DNA of 64,000 bases from an uncultured Gammaproteobacteria bacterium. GTDB taxonomy: Bacteria > Pseudomonadota > Gammaproteobacteria > UBA9214. The stretch lies in NCBI GenBank assembly GCA_963753755.1, contig CAVWDM010000013.1, forward strand, positions 281,055-345,054, given 5' to 3'. A program made the position numbers and the translations under genes. The first letter of the stretch is position 1. Each line of letters starts with the position of its first letter. This document shows positions 50,211 through 60,067 of this stretch, piece by piece. Under the pieces are notes generated by a model. It was not told the DNA's origin and did no database searches. It was given only the letters and a program-made list of their open reading frames with translations.

Positions 50211-51395
50211 CTACAGCAACAACAGGCGTTTCATCACTTTAAGAATGTCCTTGAGCGGTAGTTGCGTGGTACCTGCAGCCACCAGTGGCAGTAGTGCAGC
50301 AACCGAGAGCGGCAACAGCACTTCTCGGCTGATCAGCTTGCCCGATAGTTTGAGGGTTGCCGCATAGGCCTTGGCCGGGTCGGAAATATCCCCGGTGTTT
50401 ACCTTGTCGCTGTCTTCGCTTGCAGCAATGTTCCTGCCCAGCAGTTCACGCTCTACGGCGCGTTGATGTTGTGTGGCGCGAGCGCTATAGGCAAGCAGCG
50501 TTTGTTCCTTCAGTTTGCCTATCGGCTTGCTAAATGCCTGCAGCGGGATGGCGAACAACACCAGTATCAGCAGTAACCAGCCAGCCATGATAAAGCCATA
50601 GGTGGTTGTTGTAATCGTGCCGTGCAGGAGTTCATGAGCCACGGCTGCACCCAGTACACAACTGATAGCAAACACAAACATGGTACAGGTGTTCGGATAA
50701 GTTCCCAGAAAGCCCAGGCCACCGTGGCTATCGGGGTGCGTCGCCACCAGGCGCAGTTCAAGTGTCGCCAGTTCGCGTAACAGCAGTCCCCATACACACA
50801 AACGCCACAGCCAGCGCAGTAACAGAAAAGAGAACAGCGTGTTGCTGACAATGATTGCCCACCAGCCAGCAAGGGTCAGGCTGTTGTGACCCTGTACGAG
50901 TTGTACCGCCCAGGTGGTGGTATCGAGCGTTATCTGTCTTTGGTAAAGAACCAGTGATAAGAATGCGGCGATCAGCAGGCAGATGGCCTCAGCGGTTTTT
51001 GCGTCCCGGCGTTTCAGTGCGTGTGTAACGGCGCTGGCAGCGGCCACAAATGAACCGGGTGCCAGCAGTGGTGCGCGTACAAACTGGAGCAGATAGATTC
51101 GCAGCTGCTTTTCAAGCCTTTTTTCCATTAACAGGAACAGGGCGATTGCGACAAAGAATCGTGCCCATACACTCAGGTCGAGCAGATAGGGGCTGTCAGT
51201 GGCCGGCCCGTGAGCACTGCCGGCAATGATGCTGAATACCAGTGGCACGCCCCAGGCGAGTGCCACAAACAGTAGTGCCCGGGAACCGGCACGGAATGCA
51301 TCCTCGTGCAACAGGCCCAGTTGTCGCTGCAGGGTATAAAATGGCCCGCCATGCGCCAGCAGGAATTCATTGAGCTTTTTTTCTTCCGGTGTCAT
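50211..51395 (-). CDS. polytopic membrane protein of unknown function
   Basis: 403-aa ORF, with probable start at MTPEEKK; multiple TM helices; no family recognised. Confidence 0.5.
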   Translation of the reverse strand: MTPEEKKLNEFLLAHGGPFYTLQRQLGLLHEDAFRAGSRALLFVALAWGVPLVFSIIAGSAHGPATDSPYLLDLSVWARFFVAIALFLLMEKRLEKQLRIYLLQFVRAPLLAPGSFVAAASAVTHALKRRDAKTAEAICLLIAAFLSLVLYQRQITLDTTTWAVQLVQGHNSLTLAGWWAIIVSNTLFSFLLLRWLWRLCVWGLLLRELATLELRLVATHPDSHGGLGFLGTYPNTCTMFVFAISCVLGAAVAHELLHGTITTTTYGFIMAGWLLLILVLFAIPLQAFSKPIGKLKEQTLLAYSARATQHQRAVERELLGRNIAASEDSDKVNTGDISDPAKAYAATLKLSGKLISREVLLPLSVAALLPLVAAGTTQLPLKDILKVMKRLLLL

Positions 51396-51586
51396 GGATG
51401 ATAGTCCCCTTATAGACTGCATACGTTCTATTGAAACAATCCTGCAGACGATGAGCGAATGACCATAGGTTTTCTCCCCTGGTTATTTGTCTGGAACTTT
51501 GGTGGCTGCCTGGGTCGCTTGCAGCTGCAATACCACTTATAGAATCCTGATATATCGTAGCATCAATATATCCTGCAGCTGCTATC

Positions 51587-51937
51587 CTACAGGGAGTACT
51601 CCTGTAAATCCGGATATGAAACACTGGCCGAAGGTTGACAATGGGTCCTTGTCATAGCGAACCTCGGCACCCTCGTTCTCGGTTTGCAGTCCGGCGGTCG
51701 AATCACTCGACCAGTTCTTCTTGATAATCCCTGAAACTTGTACACCTCGGCGACTGCATCAAGCAACTGCTTGCGATAGTTTGTATGACCGGTATGAGCA
51801 GCCAGTATTGTGCGCGTTGCAGCCACGTCATTATTAACAGAATACAGATAATCACCGGCTGCAAACTTCTCTTGCAATCCTGCGACTGCCAACTGGAGGC
51901 CATCATCGGTGTAGGGGTGGTCGATGTACACGGTCAT
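51587..51937 (-). CDS. hypothetical protein; C-terminal third may be frameshifted
   Basis: The N-terminal 70 aa look protein-like (MTVYIDHPYTDDGLQ...AEVYKF). The remainder is Arg/Pro-rich, while an alternative frame ends ...RDYQEELVE. Confidence 0.3.
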   Translation of the reverse strand: MTVYIDHPYTDDGLQLAVAGLQEKFAAGDYLYSVNNDVAATRTILAAHTGHTNYRKQLLDAVAEVYKFQGLSRRTGRVIRPPDCKPRTRVPRFAMTRTHCQPSASVSYPDLQEYSL

Positions 51938-52099
51938 TGTTATGGATCACAAACCAGTCTTCTGACAGGTGAAAGCACGCAGTTCAACCGGGTGTGGCCA
52001 GAAAACTTTTTACAGTAAGTGCTTCATGGCACAGGTAAATCAGCCTTAAGTCAGTATATTTACGTACGTATCAGTGTTTGGTGATGTAACACTGGCGGG

Positions 52100-52448
52100 T
52101 GTAGTATTTTTCCAGAATAAGTCAATAGAGATGATAACAACGGGTAATAACCAGAAATTAACCGGTACTTGAAGTGAGTTTGGGAATAATGCAGGCAAGT
52201 CTATTGTGAAATTGGTCGTGAGACAGCGAGGCCGCCGCCGCTCAGGGTTGCCTGTAGAATTTCCGTTAACGGATTCCCGGGGACTTTGGATTACCCGTGA
52301 TCGACGGCGGGTGCCTGATCGACGCAAGTTAAAACATGACATTGAGGATCTGAAAGTCATACTCTCAAAAATGGGCAGGGACTGACTGGCATGCGCGCCT
52401 GATAGACAGCGACGCAACAACAAACGACCTACAGGTCGTTTTTTTTGT
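52100..52448 (+). ncRNA. candidate sRNA (about 300–350 nt) ending at the intrinsic terminator; identity unknown
   Basis: ORF-free plus-strand region with a strong terminator. Only tiny ORFs (at most 6 codons) are present. The 5' end was not determined. Confidence 0.3.
52425..52448 (+). terminator. strong rho-independent terminator (ACGACCT-AC-AGGTCGT + T8) ending an unannotated plus-strand transcript
   Basis: A perfect 7-bp GC-rich stem is followed by 8 T. No plus-strand CDS lies upstream for about 500 nt. Confidence 0.6.
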
Positions 52449-53243
52449 GTGCGCCCAGCATGGGCGCGATTCTGGAGGTGGAAGTCCTCCGTGAGTTGAC
52501 CACAGCGAACGAAGTGAAGCGCAACTGCATGAGGGTGACCGATTGTGGGGAGGAAGCGTGGAGCGAAGCCGTGAGCCGATGGACAAGAACCGGATACGAG
52601 GCGGTGCCGAGCAGGGTGAGCGGGCATGAAATCGCGAAGCTCTTGTGGTCAAGGCTCAGGCGGCGTAAATCCGGCGGTTGTGCGGTGAAGGATCGCGTTC
52701 TTACCTGGGGAGATCTCGCCTTGTGCCTGAAAGGGCGACGGTGATGAACCGGAGCGAGAAGTCAGCAGAGGTCATAGTAGCTGCCAGCATGGAGCGAAGG
52801 GCCGAAGGAATAGGAGAGGGAGTCCTCTGGTTCTCGGATTTGGAATGTCTCAGATGTTCGCAGAAGCGAAGCTCGTCGTTATGGCTTGTAAGGTGAAGCC
52901 CGATAAGCTACGGCAGCGAGAAACCGAATCGGGCGGATCAGAAACAAGCAACCTCAGGAGGTGTGCCGGGATTGACTCAAGTGCGCCGACCTCAACTATT
53001 CCAACCGCCCGGTGCGGACCCGCATGCCGGGTGGTGTGGGAGGGGCTCGGTCAGGTTTCCTGACCGCCCCTATCCCGATTCAGGGGATATGCACCGTCCC
53101 TGTTGCGGATAGCAGGGATCTGACTACCGGGGGTGTGCCGTGGGCCGGTTGCCGGTGACTGCTGCGGTGTGTACAGGCAGCCTCTGACGCAGGACGGCAT
53201 ATCGGTTAAACTTTGCCATTATTTTGATTCCGGAGTCAGCTGC

Positions 53244-54107
53244 ATGAAGTTCACCATTGACGAGTTCCGCGCCTGGAAGAATAAAAGCATTACCCTGCTG
53301 GGTATGTCCGGGGTGGGCAAGACTCACCTGTCAATGCTGCTGCGGGCAAACAACTGGTTTCACTACTCGGGCGACTATCGCATTGGCACCCGTTACCTGG
53401 ATGAACCGATCATGGACCTGATCAAGCAGCAGGCGATGCAGACGCCGTTTTTGCGTGAACTGCTGCGTCGCGACTGGATCCAGATTCGCAACAATATCAA
53501 GGTCAACGACCTCGGGCCGGTAATGAGTTTCGTTGGCAAGCTTGGCAATCCCGAGCTTGGCGGCGTGCCGCTGGATGAATTTTCTGGTCGCCAGGCACTG
53601 TACCGTGAGGCAGAAATCGCGGCCATGCAGGATGTGCCCGTGTTTATCCGCAAGGCGCACGAGATTTACGGTTACGACAACTTCGTCAACGACGTTGGCG
53701 GCAGCCTCTGTGAACTTGATGAACCGTCCGTGATCGACCTGCTGGTGGAGTACTCGCTGGTCCTGTACATCCGTGTCACCGAGAAGGCCGAGGAGGAGGC
53801 GCTCATCAGCCGTGCACAGAGTAGCCCCAAACCGTTGTATTACCGCCCCGAATTTCTTGCCGAGCAGATGCAGCAGTATCTTGGTGAGAACAACCTGGAG
53901 TACGCGGCAGAGGTGGATCCGGACGATTTCTGTCGCTGGGTGTTCCCGCGCCTGTTCCATTCGCGTGTGCCGCGTTACGAGGCCATTGCGCGACCGCACG
54001 GCTACACCGTCACCTCGCACGAGGTGGCGGCGGTGCGCGACGAACAGGACTTTCTCGACCTGCTGGAAAACGCCATCGCCCGCAAGGCGAATGAACCGCA
54101 GGAGTAG
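53244..54107 (+). CDS. P-loop NTPase / kinase-like protein of unknown specificity
   Basis: Walker A LLGMSGVGKTHLS near the N-terminus, 287 aa. GGAG RBS 10 nt upstream. First gene of a tight three-gene operon. The ORF track starts at 53133. Confidence 0.6.
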   Translation: MKFTIDEFRAWKNKSITLLGMSGVGKTHLSMLLRANNWFHYSGDYRIGTRYLDEPIMDLIKQQAMQTPFLRELLRRDWIQIRNNIKVNDLGPVMSFVGKLGNPELGGVPLDEFSGRQALYREAEIAAMQDVPVFIRKAHEIYGYDNFVNDVGGSLCELDEPSVIDLLVEYSLVLYIRVTEKAEEEALISRAQSSPKPLYYRPEFLAEQMQQYLGENNLEYAAEVDPDDFCRWVFPRLFHSRVPRYEAIARPHGYTVTSHEVAAVRDEQDFLDLLENAIARKANEPQE

Positions 54108-54112
54108 CCGCC

Positions 54113-55201
54113 ATGCCGATTGTCGCCCACAATGATCTACCGACCTTCCAGCGGCTGCGCCAGGAAGGCCAGACTATTCTCGCGCCCGGCCGTGCCCGGC
54201 ACCAGACCATTCGCGAGTTGCACATCGGTGTGCTCAACATGATGCCCGATGCCGCACTGGCTGCGACCGAGCGCCAGTTCTTCCGACTGGTGGGGGAGAG
54301 CAACCCCATTGCGCAGTTCTACCTGCACCCGTTCACGCTGCAGGAGCTGCCGCGCGGCGAGCAGGCACATGCACACATCGAGCGTTACTATGACACTTTC
54401 GAGCAGATACGCGCCGAGGGTCTGGATGCGCTGATTATTACCGGCGCCAATGTCACCCATCCTGACCTGTCGCAGGAATCCTTCTGGGAGCCGCTGCGCC
54501 AGGTGTTTGACTGGGCGCAGCAGAATGTGACCTCGGTGCTGTGTTCCTGCCTCGCCACCCACGCGGCGATGCAGTTTCATCATGGCCAGAAACGTCGTGC
54601 CATGCCTGCCAAGCGCTGGGGCGTGTATCCACACCGAGTGATCCAGACAACGCATCCGCTGGTAAACGACGTCAATACACAGTTTGACGTACCGCATTCA
54701 CGCTTTAACAATATCAGCGCCGCGCAATTCAATGAGGCCGGGCTGCACGTGCTGGTGGAGAGCATCGAGGCGGGGGTACACCTCGCGGTCAGTGCGGACG
54801 GTATCCGCGTCGTCTATTTCCAGGGTCACCCGGAGTATGACACCGTGTCCCTGCTGAAGGAGTACAAGCGCGAGGTGCGGCGTTTTTCCGCCGGCGAGCG
54901 CAGTGATTATCCGCCGTTTCCGGAAAACTATTTCAAGCCGCGTGAACAGGCCATCTTGAACGAGTATCGCTTGCGCCTCGATGCCGCACAGACAGCGGGC
55001 AATCCGGTGCCTGAGTTTCCGGAACAGCTGGTTGCCGGGCGCATCGACAATACCTGGCACGATGCTGCCGAGGGTATCGTCGGTAACTGGATTGGCCTGG
55101 TTTACCAGTTGACCCATGAAGAGCGGAGGCTGCCCTTCATGGACGGGGTGGACCTGCACAACCCGCTCGGTCTCGACTGGATCGCCGAGTCACACCCATA
55201 G
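54113..55201 (+). CDS. MetA-family (HTS) homoserine O-acyltransferase homologue with a C-terminal extension of about 50 aa
   Basis: The N-terminus aligns to E. coli MetA (MPIVAHNDLPTFQRLRQEGQTIL...IRELHIGVLNMMPD). Catalytic Cys (CSCLA), His (VPHSRF) and the GHPEYD motif are present. Confidence 0.75.
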   Translation: MPIVAHNDLPTFQRLRQEGQTILAPGRARHQTIRELHIGVLNMMPDAALAATERQFFRLVGESNPIAQFYLHPFTLQELPRGEQAHAHIERYYDTFEQIRAEGLDALIITGANVTHPDLSQESFWEPLRQVFDWAQQNVTSVLCSCLATHAAMQFHHGQKRRAMPAKRWGVYPHRVIQTTHPLVNDVNTQFDVPHSRFNNISAAQFNEAGLHVLVESIEAGVHLAVSADGIRVVYFQGHPEYDTVSLLKEYKREVRRFSAGERSDYPPFPENYFKPREQAILNEYRLRLDAAQTAGNPVPEFPEQLVAGRIDNTWHDAAEGIVGNWIGLVYQLTHEERRLPFMDGVDLHNPLGLDWIAESHP

Positions 55202-55226
55202 CATCCCCGGTACAAGGAGCAAACAC

Positions 55227-56390
55227 ATGCAGTCCGGTCCAAGAGAAATTATCACCCCGTTCAGACCCATCCCGCTGGATGTGCCGAAGGCCATGGCGCC
55301 CAACGAGTTTTTCAACAGCACCGAGAATCTCGATGACCTGATGCACAACAACGGGCTGTTGACCAATCCGGAGAACCTGCTGCTGTACCGCAAGGCGCTG
55401 GGTCACAGCCGCGAGTTCGATACCTCGATTATCTACAACAGTTCAAAGTGCATACTCAACCCGCTGGGCCGGCCGGTACGCCGTACCCAGGTGCCGGCCG
55501 ATGTGAAACATATCTGGAACCGTATGAACCAGATCATTATCGATTACATGGTGGAACGTTACCCGGACCCGGAGTCACACCTGCTGCTTGCGGGCGAGGC
55601 CAGCCTTGATGCTACCTGGCCGCTGACGTCGCCCGGGGTGCCCAGTATTCGCATGCTGCACAATCATTTCATCGTCTTCAGCATGGACGAGCTGCGCACT
55701 GCACAGCCGGCCGACCCGAAAAACCCGAATCTCACCGACGGTGGCCAGCACAGCCTCTTCGAGGCCTACATGCACGATGTCTACCGCGAGTTCTTCGATC
55801 GCGCACTGGACCTGGAGATCCTCTGGCCGGTGGGCGAGGCGGGCTCACGCATCGAGTTGACCGGTTATCCGCAGGGGCTGCCGAGCTGGGAAATCCAGGG
55901 CGGTATAGCAGCACTGGAGGAGGTCGGTTTCTGGAGCGAGTATGACGAGATTCTGAAGGGCTTCATGGATTTCTACCGGTCTTTCTTCAGCCAGGTATCG
56001 ACGCGCAATGCGCCAATGCTGGATGATCTGTACTTCCCGGATCATGTCGAGAATGTGCTGCTATTTAATAATGATTTCCTGAAGACGGCGAAGAAGGTCC
56101 GCGATAACTGTATCGTGGATGCCGCCTATGCCAATGCCATACGCTGGCAGCCGGCCTTCAAGCAGCTCATTTACCGTAACGACGAGGACAAGCTGATTGT
56201 CACCATCAGCCAGAACTCGATCGGTAACGCCATTACCGAGCTGCTTGGCGTGGTGGTCAAGCGCGTTCCCGATGCGCAGGCTTACGAGCGCTTCGAACCG
56301 CAGTTGATAGAGCAGTTGCTGGAAGTGCGCCGCCGTCTCATCGAGGCTGACCTCGGCGATGCTATCGAAACACCCTACTGGCCGGGCTGA
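55227..56390 (+). CDS. 388-aa protein of unknown function, third gene of the operon
   Basis: Strong RBS AAGGAGC 7 nt upstream. No recognisable motifs. Soluble-looking composition. Confidence 0.55.
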   Translation: MQSGPREIITPFRPIPLDVPKAMAPNEFFNSTENLDDLMHNNGLLTNPENLLLYRKALGHSREFDTSIIYNSSKCILNPLGRPVRRTQVPADVKHIWNRMNQIIIDYMVERYPDPESHLLLAGEASLDATWPLTSPGVPSIRMLHNHFIVFSMDELRTAQPADPKNPNLTDGGQHSLFEAYMHDVYREFFDRALDLEILWPVGEAGSRIELTGYPQGLPSWEIQGGIAALEEVGFWSEYDEILKGFMDFYRSFFSQVSTRNAPMLDDLYFPDHVENVLLFNNDFLKTAKKVRDNCIVDAAYANAIRWQPAFKQLIYRNDEDKLIVTISQNSIGNAITELLGVVVKRVPDAQAYERFEPQLIEQLLEVRRRLIEADLGDAIETPYWPG

Positions 56391-59400: not shown

Positions 59401-59802
59401 CTACTTGTCATCCTTGTCCAGGTCCAGTGATACGGAATTTATGCAATAGCGCAGCCCGGTCGGTGCCGGCCCGTCTTCAAAGACATGACCGAGGTGGGCA
59501 TCACAACGGGAGCACATCACCTCGACACGCGCCATGCCGTGACTGCTGTCGGTTTCAGTCTTGATGTTTTCGCTGACGCCGGGTCGTATGAAGCTGGGCC
59601 AGCCACTGCCGGAGTCGTATTTATCGCTGGAATGAAACAGCGGCGTACCGCAACAGATACAGTTGTAGACACCACTGTCCTTGCAGTCATGGTATTCCCC
59701 GCTGAATGGCCGTTCCGTACCCTTGCGGCGGGTGACCAGGTATTGATCCTCTGTCAGCTGTGTCTGCCACTCGCTGTCAGGTTTTTCGATTTTTTCAGTC
59801 AT
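59401..59802 (-). CDS. msrB: peptide-methionine (R)-S-oxide reductase MsrB
   Basis: CxxC...CxxC zinc site and catalytic RYCINS motif. Start at MTEKIEK. The ORF track extends to 59922. Confidence 0.85.
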
Positions 59803-60067
59803 GCTCGTTCCTGTCGTCAGCACCCGTGTAAATGCGCGGCGCATTCGCCTCCAGCCTGTGTAAAAATTCCCTTGCCGTGGCAACGCCGATTTCGGCCTCC
59901 GCGCGCGCTTGCGGGTTATCACTGTTACGCACCTCGTTCTCAGCCCAGTCGAGAAACTCCGTCACGGCCGTCATCTGTTGATCAGCAGGCAGTGACTTCA
60001 GGTAGTCACTCGGGCGTGCCTTGATGCGGTTACCTTCAATGACATCCAGGTTGAACAGGAGTTTCAT
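59795..60067 (-). CDS. small hypothetical protein (90 aa)
   Basis: ORF overlapping the msrB start by 8 nt and the upstream gene's stop by 4 nt, consistent with translational coupling in an operon. Confidence 0.45.

Follow-up and report, generated by a model that had tools for sequence, protein, structure and literature searches.

Two described systems come closest to the locus treated here. In the first, the gene of the homoserine acyltransferase MetX is coupled to metW, a small gene whose product has an enzyme fold and an undefined role; in vivo, the acylation of homoserine by MetX depends on MetW, whose function is unclear (PMC2290942). The second is a homoserine kinase of the shikimate-kinase type, Desulfovibrio DvMF_0971, which rescues an E. 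coli thrB mutant (PMC5764234). We analysed a stretch of 64,000 nucleotides (nt) from an uncultured Gammaproteobacteria bacterium (GenBank assembly GCA_963753755.1, contig CAVWDM010000013.1, positions 281,055 to 345,054; hereafter the window), in which three open reading frames (ORFs), labelled here g1, metA and g3 and all on the forward strand, follow one another at positions 53244–56390. They encode a P-loop protein, a homoserine O-acyltransferase and a protein that an earlier note on this DNA could not place in any family. Our data show that g1 and metA are a conserved two-gene module across divergent genomes, whereas g3 lies outside the conserved unit and is, in our reading, an unrelated passenger.

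The g1–metA arrangement is like that of metX–metW: in both, the gene of a homoserine acyltransferase is coupled to the gene of a protein with an enzyme fold, and the coupling is of comparable strictness, metA standing behind g1 in 93 of the 95 loci that could be evaluated (see below). The likeness lies in the proposed role only. MetW is folded as a methyltransferase, g1 probably as a P-loop kinase, and we found no homology of g1 to the MetW family, the Pfam matches of g1 being sub-threshold P-loop families only; MetX is an alpha/beta hydrolase, whereas MetA is an HTS-family enzyme. The two genes also stand in the opposite order, the putative accessory coming first here, and MetW has genetic evidence behind it, while g1 is known from sequence alone. 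With the Desulfovibrio homoserine kinase (family NF040667) and with AroK g1 shares the P-loop, strand 2 and the G-D motif that follows it, and apparently also the strand-4/LID motif 'R...K-P-L' and the C-terminal 'R-x-P-x-Y-E-x-I-A'. The Desulfovibrio enzyme acts on homoserine and g1 adjoins homoserine metabolism; g1 is, however, about 120 residues longer than this type of kinase.

Linkage of g1 and metA

The g1 gene (53244–54107) encodes 287 amino acids (aa) from an ATG at 53244 to the stop TAG at 54105–54107; a GGAG lies 8 nt upstream of the ATG, and the start agrees with 287-aa homologs. It is followed by metA (54113–55201; ATG at 54113, stop at 55199–55201), which encodes a 362-aa protein. 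At the junction (54100–54115) the stop of g1 and the start of metA are separated by 5 nt, and the metA Shine-Dalgarno sequence AGGAG (54100–54104) lies within the last g1 codons, an arrangement that fits translational coupling.

Association of the two genes was assessed in metagenome loci chosen independently of metA: the only criterion of the scan was DNA that codes for YSGDYRIGTR, a peptide invariant in g1, and it gave 120 loci with g1 proteins 44–99% identical to that of the window. In 93 of them the next gene downstream, on the strand of g1, encodes a MetA homolog. Among the 27 loci lacking metA, 25 are non-evaluable, since the contig ends no more than 31 nt past the aligned part of g1, which leaves 95 evaluable loci, 93 of them (∼98%) with metA behind g1. 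The link between the P-loop protein and an HTS enzyme, proposed earlier from the window itself, is thus upheld. Intergenic gaps are short (median 21 nt, and at most 50 nt in 79 of the 93 pairs), and stop/start overlaps of the ATGA type occur in some pairs (L118 and L150). Any other neighbour of the pair recurs in eight metagenome loci at most.

The same picture emerges from four genomes deposited at NCBI/ENA (L084–L087: a Ctena orbiculata symbiont and three metagenome-assembled genomes), whose MetA proteins are 72–81% identical to that of the window. Each encodes a 282–288-aa protein free of Pfam matches 5–25 nt upstream of metA. These upstream proteins are g1 homologs (63–88% identical), while the flanking genes are otherwise unrelated, and g3 stands behind the pair in only one of the four genomes.

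The most divergent g1 homologs (∼44%; L097, L125 and L206) lie upstream of a canonical short MetA of 305 aa, which scores 404 bits against HTS and carries the Glu111-type (acetyl-type) 'GAPVE' motif. Since g1 pairs with this short form as well, the association is bound neither to the long MetA subfamily found in the window nor to one acyl donor. The identity of g1 to its window counterpart co-varies with that of MetA (r = 0.90, n = 87 pairs). No g1–MetA fusion proteins were found among 786 ORFs.

MetA of the window

The middle protein matches Pfam PF04204 (HTS) with 295 bits (E = 5e-88; gathering score 27) over profile positions 1–297 of 298, and the NCBIfam equivalog NF003776 ('homoserine O-succinyltransferase MetA') with 516 bits, against a cut-off of 358, over positions 1–352 of 353. 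Solved MetA structures align with residues 1–275 at E-values of 1e-37 to 3e-40, and nothing essential distinguishes the window protein from them (2ghr, 2vdj, 2h2w, 7cbe and 6mtg). In the alignments to 2ghr and 2vdj its Cys146, His239 and Glu241 coincide with the catalytic Cys142, His235 and Glu237, and a QGHPEYD motif begins at residue 237. It was therefore correctly recognised, in the earlier note, as a true HTS (MetA) protein with catalytic Cys/His and GHPEYD in place. The extra C-terminal residues that were also remarked upon, ∼50 in number, are real when compared with solved MetAs of 301–312 aa, to which similarity stops near residue 275, but they are not unusual. NF003776 describes a known long subfamily with the length of the window MetA, and because the match to its 353 positions covers 1–352, the extension is a subfamily trait and no novelty.

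Judged by these profiles, the metA product is a regular MetA of the long subfamily NF003776. Recruitment of an HTS-like enzyme to some other pathway, the more adventurous suggestion of the note, is argued against by the full-length match well above the equivalog cut-off and by the pairing of g1 with canonical 305-aa MetAs elsewhere. The acyl group is probably succinyl. The protein falls below the cut-off of both the succinyl model TIGR01001 (224 versus 495) and the acetyl model NF047918 (220 versus 460). Thr115 occupies the position of Glu111 of the B. cereus enzyme, which we take to govern the choice between acetyl and succinyl groups, and so matches neither of the residues, Glu or Gly, that characterised enzymes have there; the lysine of the 'MPxK' segment of solved MetAs has no aligned counterpart here. 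In view of these differences the choice of succinyl is tentative.

The g1 protein

Motifs of g1 include a Walker A sequence GMSGVGKT (residues 20–27), HYSGDYRIG (40–48), NDVGGS (149–154), PKPLYYR (195–201) and RVPRYEAIA (241–249). In a diverse g1 alignment (A4), with members 45–83% identical to the window protein, Walker A, HYSGDYRIGTRY, D-x-G-G-S and P-K-P-x-x-Y are invariant, and the total of invariant columns reaches ∼60, a pattern in keeping with a working enzyme and not with a degenerate fold.

No Pfam or NCBIfam model matches g1 above its cut-off, and the sub-threshold matches are confined to P-loop segments; despite the Walker A motif, g1 scores far under the cut-offs of AAA_18, AAA_33 and the shikimate-kinase models. 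Homologs are annotated at source as 'ATPase' or 'shikimate kinase'. The most recurrent family is NF040667 (homoserine kinase, shikimate-kinase type, Desulfovibrio), matched by 18 of 18 diverse g1 proteins with a best E-value of 2.3e-5; the match extends, however, over profile positions 2–41 of 163 only (from the P-loop to strand 2), and scores no higher than 24.3 bits, where the cut-off is 197. A PDB search with the A4 profile returned shikimate kinases at E-values of 0.08–0.27 in two stretches, the P-loop and the strand-4/LID region. In an hhalign comparison with E. coli AroK, whose sequence was entered by hand, g1 residues 165–263 aligned with strand 4, the 'KRPLL' LID and 'RNPLYEEIA' (E = 1e-3, probability 22%). 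In addition, ∼90 residues are inserted behind strand 2 of g1, and its C-terminus is extended. It is best described, from its motifs, as a divergent shikimate-kinase-like P-loop kinase; the earlier surmise that the P-loop protein may be a kinase agrees with these motifs and with NF040667 as the nearest curated family.

Role of the g1–metA pair

What is already known at this locus is MetA; what is new is its strictly linked, uncharacterised shikimate-kinase-like partner, which no family model covers. Such a partner of metA is not described in the methionine-regulon and pathway papers that could be searched. From genomic context we consider it fairly probable that g1 is an ATP-using, dedicated partner of the MetA step and that g3 is a passenger. 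MetA would commit homoserine to methionine by ping-pong transfer of an acyl group from acyl-coenzyme A through Cys146, with assistance from His239 and Glu241. The g1 protein, which would bind ATP and whose gene is co-inherited with metA and apparently translationally coupled to it, would serve homoserine acylation in vivo as an accessory enzyme, either supporting or gating it, and would be for MetA the counterpart of what MetW is for MetX. We favour such a dedicated accessory over a general housekeeping kinase.

Several observations weigh against this interpretation. It is g1 itself that has all the hallmarks of a small-molecule kinase, so that a plain metabolic role on a shared substrate is a serious rival, and the curated family closest to it is a proven homoserine kinase. 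Two g1 genes have room downstream but no metA (L140 and L185). The sampled metagenome contigs, to which no taxonomy is assigned, may mostly come from one broad gammaproteobacterial clade, and the linkage may in part be inherited synteny. An AlphaFold2 (AF2) model of g1 alone had a mean predicted local distance difference test score (pLDDT) of 46.5 and was not used. For the third gene, the assignment to the HIT superfamily discussed below comes from weak Foldseek matches at E-values of 0.03–0.1 and a motif, the profile comparisons being empty.

The surroundings of the two metA-free genes deserve a separate description. In L140 (3473–6326) g1 is followed by a Methyltransf_11 gene and a gene of a family III coenzyme A-transferase. 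MetW was considered for this methyltransferase and ruled out, as it is a generic Methyltransf_11 protein. In L185 (2400–4057) a phosphofructokinase-like ORF overlaps the stop of g1 by 4 nt.

The alternative that survives best takes g1 for a homoserine kinase that is non-orthologous and of the shikimate-kinase type. In that case the cassette would unite two enzymes that compete for homoserine, one phosphorylating it towards threonine and the other O-acylating it towards methionine, and their coupled expression would set the split. We regard this as less likely than the accessory role, though of substantial probability. The recurrence of NF040667 in every one of the diverse g1 proteins speaks for it, as does the rescue of the thrB mutant by DvMF_0971, a member of this nearest curated family, together with the shikimate-kinase-like motifs of g1. 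The pairing with both long and short (Glu111, acetyl-type) MetAs also implies that the item shared by the two proteins is homoserine and not the acyl donor. Yet the family match is restricted to the first quarter or so of the profile at 24 bits or less, and the ∼90-residue insert and the C-terminal extension of the 287-aa protein are missing from the 163-position family. There is, moreover, no evident reason for a threonine-pathway enzyme to adjoin metA in 98% of cases, and co-regulation with a methionine gene would presumably couple threonine supply to methionine status. On this analysis we slightly prefer the role of g1 as an accessory of MetA, because the linkage to metA is near-obligate and compatible with translational coupling, because the pair survives reshuffled flanks and a change of MetA subfamily, and because it would be strange, from a regulatory point of view, for a threonine enzyme to be tied to a methionine gene.

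Inherited synteny devoid of any functional link, with g1 as an unrelated housekeeping nucleoside triphosphatase, is improbable. The sampled loci may indeed represent one large clade, and the co-variation of g1 and MetA identities is what simple co-inheritance predicts. Against this, the genes around the pair are different in nearly all loci, yet the pair itself is unbroken, with order and strand preserved down to 44% g1 identity, the gaps between its genes are short or overlapping, and it is maintained across two MetA subfamilies.

Methionine synthesis is treated as solved, yet MetW has been unexplained for 25 years and automated reconstructions still leave the homoserine node incomplete. In ∼98% of the loci sampled, another accessory gene, unrelated to metW, is locked to metA, which suggests an additional ATP-binding protein as a frequent requirement, or a control, of homoserine activation; the other explanation of the lock would be a further type of homoserine kinase. 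Either role of g1, if true, would correct the annotation ('ATPase', 'shikimate kinase') of thousands of sequences and improve the prediction of auxotrophies for sulfur-oxidising bacteria, free-living as well as symbiotic.

The third gene

In the window, g3 (55227–56390; ATG at 55227, stop at 56388–56390) begins 25 nt behind metA and has its own Shine-Dalgarno sequence, AAGGAG, at 55214–55219. The ORF had been recognised correctly, its product having 387 aa rather than 388, which is the number of codons with the stop included. All three starts are preceded at 7–8 nt by a Shine-Dalgarno-like sequence, so the tight spacing and good ribosome-binding sites reported for these ORFs are confirmed, coordinates included. 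A consensus scan detected no terminator-like site between the three genes, and the patatin-like lipase gene downstream of g3 is convergent. From this layout, g1, metA and g3 probably form one transcription unit in this genome.

Elsewhere the unit does not hold. We collected 80 genome loci around g3 homologs, 53 of them with sufficient upstream sequence. Eight of these 53 have metA directly upstream of g3, all with g3 at least 92% identical to that of the window; in two others metA is 2.5 kb and 7 kb away, and in the remaining 43 it is absent from the vicinity, including loci with g3 up to 87% identical. Within the metagenome sample g3 stands behind g1–metA in 3 of the 120 loci (3 of the 93 pairs), and in all three g1 is at least 86% identical. 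The gene is unlinked to metA in Thioalkalivibrio, Sulfurirhabdus, Sedimenticola and others: in Thioalkalivibrio sulfidiphilus it adjoins moaA and a DUF2325 gene, and in Sulfurirhabdus it lies behind a resistance-nodulation-division (RND) pump. Clustering of its neighbours gave best clusters present in no more than 13 of ∼80 loci (RND efflux pair, DUF1249, gyrA), which belong mostly to one Thiotrichaceae-like lineage. Because, among these genome loci, metA directly adjoins g3 only where g3 is at least 92% identical, and neighbours are not conserved, we explain the g3–metA adjacency by a lineage-specific rearrangement. It would have placed g3 behind metA in this lineage, where g3 is probably read through from the same promoter. 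The grouping of three genes as a single operon unit, as first proposed, is thus limited to close relatives, and a conserved co-occurrence of gene neighbours, which the earlier note had suggested looking for, exists for g1–metA and not for g3; as regards the third gene, this is an outcome that the note itself had named as refuting its proposal.

A novel small-molecule pathway of all three genes, made of a recruited HTS-like acyltransferase, g1 as activating kinase and g3 as a further enzyme, is very unlikely and largely refuted by the co-occurrence counts: the tight spacing, good ribosome-binding sites and lack of a terminator-like site in the scan, the uncharacterised state of both g1 and g3 and the retention of the trio in close relatives (8 genome loci and L013, L086, L100, L146 and L197) speak for it, but of the 93 g1–metA pairs from metagenomes 90 have no g3 beside them, as have three of the four from genomes, no metA is within reach in 43 of the 53 evaluable g3 loci, and MetA scores above the curated equivalog cut-off for a homoserine O-succinyltransferase.

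Conserved neighbours were also considered as a clue to the function of g3 and rejected, since they reflect local synteny within single lineages. Proteins in which g3 appears fused to other sequences (P0128, P0256 and P0241) were discarded too: they carry unrelated domains (ankyrin repeats with cation-efflux domains, FGE-sulfatase and STAS) and look chimeric or mis-joined. In the Thiotrichaceae-like lineage (L026, L034, L035, L043, L045, L046, L049, L056, L060 and L065) a DUF1249 (YqiB-like) gene follows g3 at ∼30–220 nt; the RND efflux pair comes next in 8 of these 10 loci, and gyrA lies further downstream in 6. We also noticed that g3 is more conserved than MetA in shared loci, for example in L086 (g3 90%, g1 88%, MetA 81%).

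The search for g3 homologs returned 3353 sequences, and the best 120 are 79–90% identical and come from Gamma- and Betaproteobacteria. Across the sulfur-oxidising members of the two classes (loci L001–L083) the family is 72–95% identical. Its hosts include Thioalkalivibrio, Thiohalomonas, Thiohalobacter, Sedimenticola and symbionts of bivalves and tubeworms, and among betaproteobacteria Sulfuricella, Sulfurirhabdus and Sideroxydans. Representatives at 50% clustering, searched exhaustively, are mostly fragments, with only two divergent full-length proteins (54% and 44%) and a partial match of 30%. As the earlier note had found from the letters alone, the protein resists assignment: it has no match in Pfam, NCBIfam, PADLOC, PHROGs or PDB sequences, and an exact-sequence look-up found no record of the g3 sequence of the window.

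An AF2 model of g3 reached a pLDDT of 83.7 and a predicted template-modelling score of 0.88. When it was searched with Foldseek, neither the PDB nor the viral library yielded a significant match. In both libraries, however, the best of the weak matches are proteins of the HIT superfamily: CDP-diacylglycerol pyrophosphatase 2pof heads the list (rank 1, E = 0.03); the diadenosine tetraphosphate (Ap4A) phosphorylase Rv2613c, 3ano, comes at rank 4 (probability 0.82, template-modelling (TM) score of 0.41 on the target), and a giant-virus HIT-domain protein is at rank 4 in BFVD. Matches to the HIT superfamily have E-values of 0.03–0.1 and TM scores of 0.35–0.41, on the target only. Residues 43–152 of the model form three strands, a long helix and a strand, followed by a strand that starts with H145-N-H147, an order that agrees with what we take to be the HIT topology. 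K56, H60, D65, R82, S126, S140, H145, H147 and D171 are invariant, the two histidines H145 and H147 even in relatives of 28–54% identity. The motif reads S140-I-R-M-L-H145-N-H147-F-I-V-F, with the serine five residues before H145, and its spacing appears to be the same as in the HIT signature S-x-x-x-x-H-x-H-hydrophobic-hydrophobic. Set against the triad H-phi-H-phi-H-phi-phi, M143-L-H145-N-H147-F-I retains two of three histidines, the first being Met. The motif lies near 40% of the chain, presumably as in GalT, whose type of two-domain transferase also belongs to the superfamily. The 220-residue C-terminal domain of g3 has no assignment. We found no Pfam or NCBIfam match of g3 to HIT-type families at E ≤ 10 and none in the PDB profile search, and hhalign against a canonical HIT protein from L149 gave a probability of 0.4%.

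With a model and a motif of this kind, a HIT-like nucleotide hydrolase or transferase, the likeness lying in the N-terminal half, is a tentative lead of somewhat less than even probability. As such, g3 would be a separate enzyme acting through histidine on a nucleotide-containing substrate, and given that its family occurs in bacteria that oxidise sulfur and iron, an enzyme for adenosine 5'-phosphosulfate (APS) or dinucleotides is conceivable. A family that is ∼80% identical between bacterial classes, unannotated and now provided with a confident model is worth its own study.

If both genes are read in their boldest form at once, which we think doubtful as a whole, many Gammaproteobacteria, a large group of them, would have in g1 a new component of the step that first commits them to methionine synthesis; it would be obligatory and ATP-dependent, needed by MetA in vivo or gating it in the manner of MetW. 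At the same time g3 would be a new HIT/GalT-like nucleotide-handling branch confined to sulfur- and iron-oxidising Proteobacteria, and one candidate role would be to transfer an adenylylated sulfur compound, for instance APS, or to cleave it by phosphorolysis.

Surroundings of the locus

A Pfam scan of ten neighbouring genes identified BatD, patatin, an AAA ATPase, HlyIII, methionine sulfoxide reductase B (MsrB), CorC, CcsA, Ffh and two ORFs lacking a match, all unrelated to the cluster. A defence-system or phage origin of the locus was considered and rejected, PADLOC and PHROGs matches being absent. No S-adenosylmethionine or S-adenosylhomocysteine riboswitch or leader was detected upstream of g1, either in an Rfam scan of the window at gathering scores or in a permissive scan of 51900–53300, where only a group II intron was found.

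This intron (∼52447–53085, forward strand) lies upstream of g1 and is recognised by Rfam matches to domains D1–D4 (52529–52700 with 110 bits and 52717–52802 with 46 bits) and D5–D6 (53003–53079, 36.9 bits, slightly under the gathering score of 40). No reverse-transcriptase ORF was found inside it. It starts with GTGTG at 52447, right behind an intrinsic-terminator hairpin with a T-run (52422–52446); bacterial class C introns tend to insert after terminators. Because the flanking segments adjoin each other in the close relatives L083, L100 and L007, the intron is an insertion of ∼630–700 nt specific to this genome.

The strong terminator-like hairpin (52422–52441, forward strand) stands behind an Arg-rich ORF of 59 aa (MKLVVRQRGRRRSG...; 52206–52385, forward strand), which has no Pfam match and whose DNA is 73–84% conserved in the close relatives L004, L007, L083, L100 and L102. 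Further upstream, on the reverse strand, lie an ORF of 116 aa (51587–51937) and the gene of a predicted 403-aa membrane protein (50211–51422), both free of Pfam matches. On the other side, 3 kb downstream of the cluster and on the opposite strand (59401–59922, reverse), is the MsrB gene (SelR domain, E = 3e-51), a proximity that is probably coincidental.

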